Of a DNA stretch of 26,725 nt, positions 634 through 18,440 are shown in pieces. The translations under genes were made by a program, and so were the position numbers. Each line of letters begins with the position of its first letter. Position 1 is the stretch's first letter. Below the pieces are notes generated by a model. It had not been told where the DNA came from. It worked only from the letters and a program-made list of their open reading frames with translations, and ran no database searches. Source of the stretch: an uncultured Erysipelotrichaceae bacterium (GTDB lineage: Bacteria; Bacillota_I; Bacilli_A; Erysipelotrichales; Erysipelotrichaceae). The stretch is from positions 1-26,725 of the forward strand of contig CALUZL010000143.1 in NCBI GenBank assembly GCA_944325295.1, written 5' to 3'.

Positions 634-2478
634 CTAATCTTTTGAAGACAAGGAGGTGATTTTATAACTTCCCTTTGCAAGGTCGACACTGACTTTGATG
701 CCGCCTTCAAAGGTCGACTCCATGACTTTGCCATCAGCGCTTAAAAGTCGATGATCTAAAAGTTCACTGTAAGCGACCTTTCGGTGCAGGTCGTTGACGA
801 TCTTGGCACGCTTAGAGCGCTCTTCAAGCGAAAAAGTGCTGCCAAAAGCGCCATCGACATCAGGATAGGCACCATCTCTTATTATATAGGGCATACCGCC
901 ATTCATCAGGGCGTATAACAGGTAATCTTCATCGGCCTCATCAGTGATCCAGGGCAAGATCAGCACATCGTGATAGACCAGGTCAAATAGCGGGATCGCA
1001 AGACCCATCCGCTTGGCTCCTTTCTCTTTAAGCATGAATTCGTAGGGACCGTAGTGGCAAAGAACCAGGGTATCGACTGCCCAATCCGTACACTCCTCAC
1101 TTGAAGGGATGATGCCCTTACTTATGAGATAATGGAAATAGGCTTTTCGCAACTGAGCACACTGAAAGCGGGTCATAGGGTGTCTTGAGTCGTAGCACTC
1201 ATCCATTTCGTTACAGGTAAAGACGTCAAGATAACTGGCAGTCAGTTTGATATCGGCTTTAAAGAGCTCATTGAAATTTCTTTTGACATAGTCTAGGGCC
1301 AAATTGGCACAGAGATAATTCTGCCGTCCGCCGGCCCAGCGATGATGCTCATAGACACTGCCATCAGCTTCCTTTAGCGCATTGTCGATGTTGTATGAGG
1401 GCGCCTTAAGGTAATAATCGCGATATTGATCATGCAGTGCGAAAAGGTCGCCGTTTTCATATAGATAGTGCGAAAGTTCTCTTAGACCCTCACTGCCCCC
1501 GGCCGCCTTACAGATCGGCAAGTAATCCGGATGGCAATTGTCATAGCCCGGATCACCCCAGCCGTCCAAGTGAACATAGAGGCGATCTTTGTGGATCTTC
1601 TTGAGGACCTTCAGTTCATCTAAACGCTCCTTAAAAGTGTGCAAGATGTCATCCTTTGTCGCTTCACTATAAAAAGTCGAAGTCTCATCGGTATGCGTCT
1701 TGATCCCAAAGTGGACAAGGGAAGCACCGATCAGTTTTTTGATAGATGGAAGAGCGATCTCTTTTTCCCGGAGGCTTTTAAAGTGACCTGTCTCTTTTAC
1801 AAAATGCCGATAGATCTTGGCCGCTCTTACATAGTCCATATCCTTTTCAAATGTAAAGCGGGCCGTGCGCTCATAGCCAATCTTCGCTAAACTTTCAAGC
1901 CATCTGAGACCGATCGCCGTAAAAGCTTTGTCACCATGATGGATGACTTTGTACTTGCAATCAAAAGGAGTCAGATTGATAAGACAGTACCCTTGGCCTT
2001 TCTCATATTGATGATACATTGACAAGTAGGCATCGTGACTTAAAAACTGACCATCAAAATCGAGATGGTCGAAGCTGAAATCGTAGGTGTTTGGAAGGTA
2101 TACACCCTGCATTATCGGCAAGGAACTGTAACCTTTGGGATCTTCACTTTTAAAGTATGAAGGCCAGATGATCTCCTTTATCGAAGCTTCATCAACGATC
2201 GGTAAAAGCTTAAAAAAGATCCCTTCAAAACTTATGTAGACAAAGGTCTCAACGATTAGCTTATCGCTAAAGACATAACGTGACAAGATGCCTTTATTTA
2301 CCCCGAGATCCCTGATCGTTTCTTCTTTCAGATGATCTTTAAACAAAAACTGATCACCATTTGCCATGATGATCTTGGGCTCGATGGCCTTGTAGGGTTG
2401 CCAGGTGTGGTCTTCAAAGATGACCGAGTAGAGTTCATCTTCTTTGATCAGGGTAATGTCATAGTTTTCGATCTTCAT
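634..2478 (-). CDS. Cytoplasmic glycoside hydrolase, GH129/DUF5696-like (alpha-N-acetylgalactosaminidase-like)
   Basis: 614 aa with motifs HLDGWGDPGYDNCHPDYLP, HDQYRDYY, WAGGRQNYLC, YLDVFTCNE and SSEE, recognised from GH129 (NagBb-type) enzymes. No signal peptide visible. Confidence 0.8.
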   Translation of the reverse strand: MKIENYDITLIKEDELYSVIFEDHTWQPYKAIEPKIIMANGDQFLFKDHLKEETIRDLGVNKGILSRYVFSDKLIVETFVYISFEGIFFKLLPIVDEASIKEIIWPSYFKSEDPKGYSSLPIMQGVYLPNTYDFSFDHLDFDGQFLSHDAYLSMYHQYEKGQGYCLINLTPFDCKYKVIHHGDKAFTAIGLRWLESLAKIGYERTARFTFEKDMDYVRAAKIYRHFVKETGHFKSLREKEIALPSIKKLIGASLVHFGIKTHTDETSTFYSEATKDDILHTFKERLDELKVLKKIHKDRLYVHLDGWGDPGYDNCHPDYLPICKAAGGSEGLRELSHYLYENGDLFALHDQYRDYYLKAPSYNIDNALKEADGSVYEHHRWAGGRQNYLCANLALDYVKRNFNELFKADIKLTASYLDVFTCNEMDECYDSRHPMTRFQCAQLRKAYFHYLISKGIIPSSEECTDWAVDTLVLCHYGPYEFMLKEKGAKRMGLAIPLFDLVYHDVLILPWITDEADEDYLLYALMNGGMPYIIRDGAYPDVDGAFGSTFSLEERSKRAKIVNDLHRKVAYSELLDHRLLSADGKVMESTFEGGIKVSVDLAKGSYKITSLSSKD

Positions 2479-3700: not shown

Positions 3701-4840
3701 TTAGTCAAACTTGTACATCTCTCCTTCGATATAGACATCGATGACATCAAAGTCATCATCAAAGACGACGATATCGGCGCGTAGACCCTCACTTAAAAGA
3801 CCACGGTCTTTTACGCCCAAAAGCAGGCACGGGTTTATCGTACAGGCCCGAAGACATGTGACCTCGTCTATTTTGGCTTCTTTTATCCCAAATTGCAAGA
3901 CTTTATTCAAACGATTGGCACTGCCGGCTATCGTTCCATCTTCCAGGCGGGCAACACCGTCTTCACATACGCGGCTTGTGCGCTCACCGTTTGTATAGAT
4001 ACCCGGCTTTAGACCTTTGATCGCCACTGAGTCGGTCACAAAGATGAGCTTATCCTTGCCTTTGATCCGCGCCAAGATGTTGGCAGCCCCTTTATGGACA
4101 TGGACGCCATCGCAGATCACTTCCGCAAAACAATCGTCATTTACCATACAAGCACCTACGACCCCGGGCTCGCGATGATGCAGGGGGCGCATGCCGTTGT
4201 AAGTATGAGTGAAAGAGGTCACTCCTTTTGCTATGGCTTTATTGCAGATATCATAAGTAGCACCACTGTGACCGATGGTCACCCGGATCCCCTTTTTGAC
4301 CAAGTATTCGATGATGCTCATATCCTCGTCGAGCTCTTCCGGTGCCAACATGACAAGTCTTAAGTGATCATGACACGCCTTTGCAAACGCATCGATGATC
4401 TCTTGCGTCGGGACGAGCTTGTTTTCAAGGGATTGGGCACCCCGATAATCAGCCGCTATGAAAGGTCCTTCGCTGTAGACGCCAAGGATCGCTGTACCCT
4501 CTTTCTTTTCATCGATGTAGTTGCCGATGACTTTAAGGCTTGCGATCAATTGAGCATATGGTGCGGTCGAGATCGTCGCCAGAGTCGAAGTTACGCCCTC
4601 ACTTGGCAGATAGTGACACCACTTGCTCAACCACTCTTCACTGGCGTCGTTATTATCACCTAAGAGATAACCGTGATTGTGGATATCGATAAGGCCCGGC
4701 ATGATAAGTTTATCGCCATAGTCTTTATCGGCTTTCAAAAGGCCATAGGGCAAGATACGTTTGATGATCCCGTCTTCAATGACCAAAGTCTTTGGGGTTA
4801 TCTTATCATCGCAGAAAACGCGTTTACTTTGAATTATCAT
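3701..4840 (-). CDS. nagA: N-acetylhexosamine-6-phosphate deacetylase (NagA/AgaA paralog in the sugar cluster)
   Basis: DIHNHG, EGPF, GHSGAT, THTYNGM, DGVH, VTDS and IAGS motifs. Substrate (GlcNAc-6P or GalNAc-6P) cannot be determined from sequence. Confidence 0.9.
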   Translation of the reverse strand: MIIQSKRVFCDDKITPKTLVIEDGIIKRILPYGLLKADKDYGDKLIMPGLIDIHNHGYLLGDNNDASEEWLSKWCHYLPSEGVTSTLATISTAPYAQLIASLKVIGNYIDEKKEGTAILGVYSEGPFIAADYRGAQSLENKLVPTQEIIDAFAKACHDHLRLVMLAPEELDEDMSIIEYLVKKGIRVTIGHSGATYDICNKAIAKGVTSFTHTYNGMRPLHHREPGVVGACMVNDDCFAEVICDGVHVHKGAANILARIKGKDKLIFVTDSVAIKGLKPGIYTNGERTSRVCEDGVARLEDGTIAGSANRLNKVLQFGIKEAKIDEVTCLRACTINPCLLLGVKDRGLLSEGLRADIVVFDDDFDVIDVYIEGEMYKFD

Positions 4841-17474: not shown

Positions 17475-17862
17475 ATGAAAAGCTACTCAGACCATTATTG
17501 ATCTGTGTATTAGTTCTGGGTCTTACTGCTTGTAGCAATACCCAAATCGAGCCATCACCAACGCCCACTACAAATACTGAAAAGATCCAAGATAAAGATC
17601 AAAGTGTCACAAATGAAGATCACACTCCTTCAACTGACTATACAAACATAAGTGATGATTCCTCAGACAGCATTAAAATACAGATAACGACAAGACCACA
17701 ACAACTCAAAACCCAGAGAAGTCTGAACCTAACAAAACACAATCAAACAATACTTCTTCTAATAATAATTCATCATCAAATAACACATCTTCAAACTTAT
17801 CATCTAATAGTGGATCCTCTCTTTATGAAATTCCCTCAAGATCTCTATTTCTTCATCTTTGA
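17475..17862 (+). pseudogene. Frameshifted lipoprotein with a Ser/Asn/Thr-rich linker
   Basis: AGGAG plus ATG 17475. Adding one A at 17478-17481 gives MKKLLRPLLICVLVLGLTAC (lipobox). Adding one A at 17675-17678 continues into TDNDKTTTTQNPEK...SNNNSSSNN to TGA 17860-17862. Confidence 0.75.
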
Positions 17863-17905
17863 TTTTTGTATATAACATCATACAATTACTTTAGGCACAG
17901 TGCCC

Positions 17906-17955: not shown

Positions 17956-18057
17956 ATATACAACAAAAGATACACCCACACGGTAGTTTAAAGGTGTACC
18001 CTAAATCCACGATAGTTTAAATTTCCGTTTTTAACCGGGGTTAATAAGATCTAAAAA

Positions 18058-18089
18058 TTGACAATCAGTTTATAAATGATAATAATATA
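18058..18089 (+). promoter_or_regulatory. Sigma-A promoter for a short non-coding RNA
   Basis: Perfect TTGACA at 18058-18063, with an AATAAT/TAATAT -10-like box 17-19 nt downstream. Confidence 0.6.
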
Positions 18090-18147
18090 GATGTGGGATG
18101 TGATGACGTATCACATCAGAAAAGAGGAGCTGGTGACTCCTCTTTTA
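18090..18147 (+). ncRNA. Candidate antitoxin antisense RNA (about 57 nt, RNA II-like)
   Basis: Lies between the promoter and a terminator. Contains an 8-bp hairpin (18097-18117) and a 15-nt segment complementary to the region just upstream of the small hydrophobic ORF on the opposite strand. Ends are estimated. Confidence 0.6.
18120..18146. terminator. Bidirectional intrinsic terminator
   Basis: AAAAGAGGAG-CTGGTGA-CTCCTCTTTT, a 10-bp perfect stem with a T-tract on each strand. Confidence 0.88.
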
Positions 18148-18196
18148 TTTAGCACTGCCATCAAAATTTTAGCTACTTCCTAGATAATTCTAAGAA

Positions 18197-18268
18197 TTAG
18201 TCTTTTTTATTTATCTCACGGACTATGAGATATAGATAGATCAATTGAATAATGATCTCTACATTCAT
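18197..18268 (-). CDS. Small hydrophobic peptide, candidate type I toxin (MNVEIIIQLIYLYLIVREINKKD, 23 aa)
   Basis: One TM-like segment with a charged tail. Sits inside a predicted ~205-nt transcript ending at the bidirectional terminator. Has no SD of its own. Confidence 0.5.
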   Translation of the reverse strand: MNVEIIIQLIYLYLIVREINKKD

Positions 18269-18308
18269 AAAGTGGGATGTGATGACAGTGCATGGATGTA
18301 TTATTCAT
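18216..18308 (-). CDS. 30-aa leader ORF (MNNTSMHCHHIPLYECRDHYSIDLSISHSP) overlapping the candidate toxin in another frame
   Basis: GGAGGT (18316-18321) lies 7 nt before ATG 18308. A perfect TATAAT (18328-18333) is just upstream. Confidence 0.4.
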   Translation of the reverse strand: MNNTSMHCHHIPLYECRDHYSIDLSISHSP

Positions 18309-18401
18309 GACTAATACCTCCGAATAAATTATACAATATATGTAAGTTTTGCTTAAAGTTAAGATAACTTACACAATTTTCTTGACAATACCGACAATAC
18401 C

Positions 18402-18440
18402 AAAAAGGGTGCGGTATGTCTTTTAGACATTTGCACCCTT
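18402..18440 (-). terminator. Intrinsic terminator after the PepSY operon
   Basis: AAGGGTGC/GCACCCTT outer stem plus ATGTC/GACAT inner stem, ending in a T5 run on the minus strand. Confidence 0.75.

Follow-up and report, generated by a model that had tools for sequence, protein, structure and literature searches.

The window considered here, meaning the whole stretch of DNA that was analysed (26,725 nucleotides; contig CALUZL010000143.1 of assembly GCA_944325295.1, positions 1 to 26,725 of the forward strand), comes from the 1.3-Mb chicken-gut metagenome-assembled genome of an uncultured Erysipelotrichaceae bacterium. It contains an unannotated cassette of 280 bp that encodes a hydrophobic peptide of 23 residues and, facing it, a small RNA (sRNA). 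The peptide is specified on the minus strand by a putative toxin open reading frame (ORF) at 18197..18268, which is conserved within its family and comprises 23 codons and a stop; a hydrophobic core is followed by the sequence REINKKD. We tabulated 34 distinct loci of this kind from Erysipelotrichales genomes and gut metagenomes, with three copies in the window's own genome. The cassette very probably represents a new family of RNA-controlled toxin-antitoxin (TA) genes. Judged from sequence comparison, it is most likely a chromosomal type I TA module built like the enterococcal par (Fst/RNA II) system, belonging to an undescribed family that is confined, as far as searched, to the Erysipelotrichales.

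The toxin messenger RNA (mRNA) would be made from a minus-strand promoter whose -10 element, TG followed by TATAAT, was read from the sequence at 18328..18335 (TATAAT at 18333-18328); relatives have TGnTAnAAT 7-9 nt upstream of a GGAGG motif. With a predicted start at about 18321-18324 and a predicted end near 18117, this mRNA is about 205 nt long. RNAfold gives a 209-nt minus-strand RNA a structure of -69.4 kcal/mol (z = -7.6), as stable as none of 200 shuffled sequences, in which a 5' stem-loop (18321-18294) is followed by a 12-bp helix between 18291-18280 and 18163-18152 and by a terminator. The stem-loop (18294..18321, minus strand) holds GGAGG (18321-18317) in its stem and an ATG (18308-18306), the start of a leader ORF, in its loop. 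The long-range helix joining the 5' and 3' regions of the mRNA (5' arm 18280..18291, 3' arm 18152..18163, both minus strand), already proposed in a preliminary description of this DNA, is reproduced by RNAfold and supported by covariation; it begins after the stem-loop, not at the extreme 5' end of the mRNA. The toxin AUG of the window copy is also paired in the predicted fold.

The plus strand carries the putative promoter of the antitoxin sRNA at 18058..18086, in which TTGACA (18058-18063) and AATAAT (18081-18086) are separated by a 17-nt spacer. It matches 11 of 12 consensus positions and is the top-scoring match in the kilobase scanned, and related loci have a TATAAT-like -10 box at the equivalent place. 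The predicted antitoxin of about 57-60 nt (18093..18150, plus strand, both ends estimated) consists of a 5' tail, a 5' hairpin (18097-18117) and the terminator. A 59-nt plus-strand RNA folds into the small 5' hairpin and terminator at -23.7 kcal/mol (z = -4.7), and the plan of tail, small hairpin and terminator was seen in most of 17 relatives folded. The intrinsic terminator at 18120..18146, found by inverted-repeat search and in the folds, would act on both strands: its arms 18120-18129 (AAAAGAGGAG) and 18137-18146 (CTCCTCTTTT) are a perfect inverted repeat forming a 10-bp stem that is flanked by an A-run and a T-run, one to each side. A simple terminator scan missed it because the interrupted tail TTTTATTT fails the rule of at least five T; a terminator of the equivalent kind, with A-run, stem and T-run, is present at 32 of the 34 loci. 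The motifs of two promoters converging on one bidirectional terminator are thus found as the preliminary description had them. The predicted mRNA and sRNA overlap at this terminator, where they are fully complementary.

A 15-nt direct repeat, GTGGGATGTGATGAC, detected by a repeat search, provides complementarity outside the overlap. Copy 1 (18093..18107, plus strand) would serve as the target-recognition sequence at the antitoxin 5' end, while copy 2 (18272..18286, minus strand) is the putative antitoxin target, at -18 to -4 of the toxin ATG. Copy 2 ends 3 nt before that ATG (18268), and the two copies are read in opposite directions, as had been claimed from the first. The predicted duplex between copy 1 and copy 2 on the toxin RNA amounts to -32 kcal/mol, and the target overlaps the 5' arm of the long-range helix by 7 nt.

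Homologous peptides of 19-27 amino acids (aa) are encoded at all 34 loci and fall into three subfamilies with a common plan, a hydrophobic core and then (R/K)E(L/I)KK. At every one of the 34 a start codon (33 ATG, one GTG) stands at the first conserved residue. Variable columns fall mostly at the third codon position, with counts by position of 15/6/20, 9/3/18 and 2/1/8 in the three subfamilies, and the toxin frame has 6, 10 and 9 codon columns with synonymous changes only, compared with 0-1 in either of the alternative frames. On this pattern of substitution the peptide frame is evolving like a coding gene. All the peptides have the hydrophobic core and charged C-terminus of the Fst/Ldr superfamily, and the P/D/S/TxxxG(C) motif of Fst/Ldr was not found in them. 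Tryptophan was absent from the 17 peptides counted and, by eye, from all 34; proline was absent from the same 17, and glycine occurred in only two of these.

Searches with protein and RNA models point the same way. Pfam PF13955 (Fst_toxin) and the NCBIfam type I toxin models gave no match to the peptides at E<=10, and no Rfam covariance model matched the window at its gathering score (at E<=10 the matches were at chance level, the best being caiA with 21 bits against a threshold of 55.5). These results agree with the earlier description of the peptide as a non-Fst one. PF13955 was not found in the window's genome, with a model so short and weak that one of 14 control genomes gave a match and none exceeded the cut-off, and Pfam Fst_toxin was not found in 200 genomes of the class. 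A match of PSII_Ycf12 to the toxin and leader peptides in the Pfam/NCBIfam search reached 16 bits against a 24-bit cut-off and was judged to be chance. A 41-aa read-through query from a decayed copy on contig C24 of the window's genome found no homologue in a large protein database, and for this reason the peptides are taken to be absent from public gene calls.

The structure of the toxin mRNA is conserved across the family. RNAalifold applied to an alignment of ten toxin RNAs recovered the hairpin, the long-range helix and the terminator; counted over all elements of the structure, 16 of the 29 base pairs have changed in both partners and 91% of cells are paired, a level approached by none of 500 shuffles or slid controls. 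In the long-range 12-bp helix, 10 of the 12 pairs covary and 95% of cells are paired. An alignment-free test of 32 loci gave -21.5 kcal/mol for a locus's own 5' and 3' arms versus -11.0 kcal/mol with the arms of other loci, and no permutation out of 20000 was as good. The 5' stem-loop shows a compensatory G-C to A-U change in the paralogue on contig C114. The homologue search and the covariation check proposed in the preliminary description have thus yielded 34 loci and covarying helices.

The repeat, by contrast with these shared features, is specific in sequence to each locus. In the relatives, 15-35 nt upstream of the toxin start, and often across it, are repeated at the 5' end of the convergent sRNA gene. 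The complementarity forms one continuous block, and the predicted duplex covers about -20 to +4 of the toxin start and overlaps the 5' arm of the long-range helix. Antitoxin 5' ends pair with their own targets at a mean of -29.0 kcal/mol, against -12.6 kcal/mol for non-cognate combinations; the cognate target is the best partner at 26 of 32 loci, and none of 20000 permutations does as well. These comparisons show that antitoxin and target sequences co-evolve across about 30 related copies.

The GGAGG had been described as sequestered in the 5' stem-loop. RNAfold agrees that it is buried; this Shine-Dalgarno (SD) sequence is not, however, the toxin's own, lying about 50 nt upstream and serving the start codon in the loop. 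From that codon, 8 nt after GGAGG, runs a leader ORF of 30 codons and a stop (18216..18308, minus strand), which overlaps the toxin ORF in another frame. Across the family 7-9 nt separate the buried GGAGG from the downstream start codon in the loop, and 50-95 nt separate it from the toxin start, which has no SD of its own at any locus. The energy of the anti-SD duplex over 17 loci is -10.1 kcal/mol before the leader start versus +0.6 kcal/mol before the toxin start. Mean pairing probabilities in 33 loci are 0.87 for the SD and 0.06 for the leader AUG; that of the toxin AUG across the family is 0.67.

No stop codon interrupts the leader ORF before the toxin start at any of the 34 loci, and at 32 of them the toxin start is in frame +1 of the leader, with spacings of 40, 43, 46, 49, 55, 58 and 85 nt. 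One of the two exceptions has a 41-nt spacing, and its leader TGA stop overlaps the toxin ATG as ATGA, a classic coupling arrangement. The other (L044/L097; G070:C30:21340-21402, minus strand) has a 42-nt spacing that fuses leader and toxin in frame, giving a toxin with an N-terminal extension, 35 aa long; such a locus could put the leader-frame rule to a natural test, or could reflect a one-base error of assembly. By our own estimate, the spacing changed independently about 10 times, in at least 8 cases by a multiple of three (P about 0.003). Openness judged by stop counts is weakly significant, with a per-locus chance of 0.4-0.8 and a summed log10 P of -3.8 assuming independence, and conservation of the frame over seven spacings is a stronger argument for the leader than these counts. 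Because the frame is conserved while the leader peptide is not conserved in sequence beyond the hairpin, selection appears to act on translation of the leader as such and not on the peptide made. In the favoured frame, ribosomes would traverse the greater part or the whole of the toxin ORF; in the alternative out-of-frame register they would stop within a few codons of the toxin start.

The conserved 5' hairpin pattern was found in 11 of 401 genomes of the order. This pattern includes the loop ATG and so may bias the sample, and the search was therefore redone with a peptide-only profile, which gave matches in 31 of 401 species genomes and 18 of 109 genera of the order, up to five per genome. 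In a 399-genome sample of the class, strong matches to the peptide profile lay solely in Erysipelotrichales. Four profile matches outside the order, at E>=0.001, were inspected (L046, L047, L049 and L050) and none had the cassette layout. Six BLAST or pattern matches (L006, L007, L015, L017, L022 and L027) were discarded as ordinary gene starts that mimic the SD-ATG hairpin. Carriers identified by an exact scan of species-representative genomes are Kandleria vitulina DSM 20405, Massilicoli timonensis, Traorella and several uncultured Erysipelotrichaceae, and a scan of metagenomes added further variants. Intact copies are present in two cultured type strains, K. vitulina DSM 20405 and M. timonensis Marseille-P3755. 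Within the genus of the window the module occurs in two of nine species searched (G000 and G010), and genomic contexts are unrelated between loci. Plasmid and phage collections searched by blastn with three family members gave no match. The preliminary description had made its reading depend on conservation of the repeat, the helices and the peptide in homologues, and it is this same layout that recurs at the 34 loci.

The window's genome has an intact copy on contig C114 and a decayed one, L002 (about 1500-1700, plus strand; contig C24:2283-2424), which adjoins a sequence that looks tRNA-like by eye. L002 keeps the promoter, the hairpin and 21 toxin codons; it has lost the stop codon, terminator, 5'-3' helix partner and antitoxin, and its toxin frame reads through into an ORF of 41 codons. 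Pairing of the window's antitoxin with the start region of L002 is predicted at -19.5 kcal/mol, and L002 may accordingly be held in check in trans by that antitoxin. In Traorella massiliensis Marseille-P3110T, L029/L035 retains the promoter, the hairpin and about 45 nt, the rest being unrelated sequence, and is a family remnant in a cultured type strain. L110 likewise has neither an antitoxin nor a helix partner.

Some further copies differ in their surroundings or state. L002 and L003, the two other copies in the window's genome, have a common flank 60 nt upstream of the toxin promoter, with the inverted repeat CCTTATTA...TAATAAGG; since the window copy is without this flank, it suggests that the two moved as a slightly larger unit. 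A weak second peptide match in K. vitulina (L071; G043:C15:10527-10580; E = 2.5e-5), reading ...FLYLIIREIKK..., runs into a terminator and has no recognisable hairpin or antitoxin; it is possibly another relic. On two metagenome contigs, L079 (about 4400-4700, minus strand) and L080 (about 4480-4800, minus strand) are syntenic: both are bordered by a surface-protein-like gene and, downstream, by a small gene common to the two. Each comprises one complete module, the two being of different toxin subfamilies, and in addition an element with a terminator, a repeat and a -10 box but no toxin; the recognition sequence of this element resembles the antitoxin of the other locus's subfamily. Reciprocal toxin loss may have left such an element behind as an orphan antitoxin, or it may confer immunity.

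Patchy distribution, multiple copies in unrelated contexts and decayed copies without antitoxin (L002, L029 and L110) are traits of TA genes, and on their account we favour a TA nature over that of an ordinary small protein. Family conservation, the coding pattern, helix covariation and locus-specific co-variation of the repeat all support the type I reading with a par-like layout with which the study began. We infer that the 23-aa hydrophobic peptide with its basic tail is a membrane-active toxin, encoded by the minus-strand mRNA of about 205 nt, and that the convergent plus-strand sRNA of about 57 nt is its antitoxin. The mRNA would be made closed and translationally silent, with the SD in a stem, the 5'-3' helix formed and, in the window copy, the toxin AUG paired. 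The sRNA would overlap the mRNA by its 3' end at the terminator and pair by its 5' 15-25 nt with about -20 to +4 of the toxin start. Such pairing would block toxin initiation and would probably mark the duplex for cleavage, perhaps by a double-strand RNase. Ribosomes are proposed to load only at the hairpin SD and loop AUG, and would then read the out-of-frame leader across the toxin start. Once the sRNA is lost, occasional opening of the hairpin would let ribosomes start the leader ORF, and their passage would melt the helix and the start-codon pairing, permitting low-level SD-independent initiation at the toxin start. Toxin synthesis would in this way be tied to leader translation, by analogy with the dependence of hok on mok. 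With somewhat less than even confidence, we propose that this is a new type I toxin family combining two designs hitherto regarded as distinct, the Gram-positive par design (3'-encoded sRNA, co-varying repeats and shared terminator) and the enterobacterial hok/mok design (a toxin cistron with no SD or a weak one that depends on an out-of-frame leader, whose SD is in a hairpin), the leader frame being kept so that ribosomes cross the toxin start without making toxin or stopping beside it.

Part of the same evidence could be accommodated by a highly divergent true member of Fst/Ldr, in which the leader has no role, the 5' SD only stabilises the 5' end of the mRNA, and the toxin start is used independently of an SD once the antitoxin has gone. 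The layout is that of par in its convergent promoters, bidirectional terminator, repeats outside the overlap, SD stem-loop and stabilising helix (PMC7472228); peptides this short soon lose detectable homology, and the leader peptide sequence is not conserved. Yet there is no tryptophan before the charged tail, no P/D/S/TxxxG motif, no PF13955 or NCBIfam match and no Rfam antitoxin match. In par, moreover, the SD adjoins the start codon and both lie under the direct repeats DRa and DRb, whereas in the present family 50-95 nt lie between SD and toxin start, and a leader frame kept over seven spacings and open at all 34 loci is hard to explain without translation. We therefore regard Fst/Ldr membership as improbable. 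A non-toxin small membrane protein under antisense control, such as a transporter or envelope modulator forming a regulatory pair and not a TA system, is somewhat less probable again. It would suit the short hydrophobic core of a peptide whose toxicity we infer, and the position of the window copy among ordinary chromosomal genes with no plasmid or phage match. A patchy occurrence (two of nine species of the genus, 31 of 401 of the order), as many as five copies per genome in differing contexts, layered repression by a buried SD, a closed mRNA and an antisense RNA, and the altered state of antitoxin-less copies (L002 without stop and terminator, L029 with only the first 45 nt) are typical of type I toxins and argue against a housekeeping small protein. 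Production of the peptide by a programmed +1 ribosomal frameshift from the leader frame, and not from its own ATG, is very improbable. The toxin frame is indeed +1 to the only SD-served start at 32 of 34 loci, and the toxin start has no SD; but a start codon stands at the first conserved peptide residue at 34 of 34 loci, the toxin frame upstream of that start has stop codons at 10 of 17 loci, the segment co-varies so freely with the antitoxin that no conserved slippery or pause motif is possible in it, and a +1 shift does not account for the two exceptions (the ATGA overlap and the in-frame fusion).

Several points nevertheless weigh against the preferred reading of the cassette as a par-like type I TA module with a coupled leader. 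The uncharged hydrophobic run of the peptide is 8-15 residues, short for a membrane-spanning helix. One intact-looking relative (L004, in G010) has weak antitoxin/target complementarity, at -13 kcal/mol. The loci are mutually related, and the permutation and frame statistics therefore overstate independence. No transcript ends could be read from the only sequencing runs with related sequence, all of which have the character of DNA: those containing the window are chicken-gut DNA metagenomes, and canine 'transcriptomic' runs with Kandleria-like copies behave as DNA contigs. Finally, the sign of leader/toxin coupling cannot be read from sequence.

The neighbours of the window copy are chromosomal genes encoding a YjbR-domain protein, a PepSY-domain protein and an amidohydrolase/NagA-like protein. 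Close upstream of the antitoxin promoter are two copies, 29 nt apart, of a direct repeat of 14 nt, CACG(G/A)TAGTTTAAA, at 17979-17992 and 18008-18021; it might be a regulator binding site or a chance occurrence. On the other side, between the toxin promoter and a hairpin at about 18407-18432, the 9-mer GACAATACC occurs twice in tandem at 18384-18401, directly after a TTGACA; the hairpin resembles the terminator of a minus-strand gene of 88 aa. The ORF at 17498-17875 (plus strand) encodes 125 aa with a lipoprotein-like N-terminus (LTAC) and a long low-complexity tail rich in serine, threonine and asparagine. It has no Pfam match; the gene may be truncated, or may encode a short lipoprotein.

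Annotation hardly ever includes type I TA systems, and the Erysipelotrichales are common in the gut and rumen. A literature search found no paper linking type I toxins with this order. The T1TAdb paper, which covers 24 families, never mentions the Erysipelotrichales, and neither does the main text of the 2010 genome-wide survey (PMC2887945). The family adds a well-supported Erysipelotrichales case, and its roughly 30 variants amount to a natural compensatory-mutation experiment for both the RNA-RNA pairing and the mRNA fold. With its SD-less toxin start and frame-conserved leader, it also offers a testable example of leader-coupled toxin translation in a Gram-positive host, a design so far tied to hok/mok and Ldr. 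The intact copies in two cultured type strains make such experiments feasible.

Among known systems, Ibs/Sib resembles the cassette in encoding a tiny, strongly hydrophobic peptide (toxins of about 19-30 aa) under an antisense RNA, often in several copies per genome. The Sib RNAs, unlike the sRNA of the cassette, are fully overlapping cis-antisense RNAs, and no sequence relationship is known.

The closest match in layout is par of the Enterococcus faecalis plasmid pAD1, together with chromosomal parEF0409 and SprA1/SprA1AS (PMC7472228), with which the cassette shares convergent promoters, a long mRNA (about 200 nt) opposed to a short sRNA (about 60 nt), and a bidirectional terminator common to both. 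RNA I and RNA II of par are read in opposite directions across direct repeats and the bidirectional terminator, and their interaction sequences are poorly conserved between loci, giving specificity (PMC7472228). The cassette likewise has direct-repeat complementarity outside the overlap that covers the toxin start, a 5' stem-loop over an SD, a helix predicted to close the mRNA, to be set beside the 5'-UH of par, a small hydrophobic peptide that ends in a charged tail, and interaction sequences that vary by locus. Fst and Ldr peptides are marked by a conserved tryptophan between helix and charged tail and by a P/D/S/TxxxG motif (PMC7472228), whereas the family described here has shorter peptides (19-27 aa) with neither the tryptophan nor a PxxxG-type motif, and no Fst model matches them. 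The cassette also differs from par in having one continuous repeat block instead of DRa and DRb, and in having no RNA-level similarity to Rfam antitoxin families. Its sequestered SD serves a separate start in the loop and an overlapping leader ORF, leaving the toxin start without an SD, whereas the SD of par adjoins the toxin start codon.

In its leader and SD the cassette resembles hok/sok/mok of plasmid R1 and Ldr/Rdl (PMC9841398; PMC8594479), in which the SD of a leader also lies in a stem and the leader crosses the toxin start out of frame. A long-distance 5'-3' interaction closes the full-length hok/mok mRNA (PMC9841398), as the long-range helix is predicted to do here, and in both systems the sequence of the leader peptide is unimportant. 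Sok, however, blocks the translation of mok, opposite whose start region it is encoded, whereas the sRNA of the cassette is 3'-encoded and would target the toxin start within the leader ORF, pairing 20-45 nt or more downstream of the leader start. Further differences are that hok has its own SD, that the toxin families are unrelated and that the host of the cassette is Gram-positive. What is new here is thus a par-type layout joined to an unrelated peptide and a mok-like leader.

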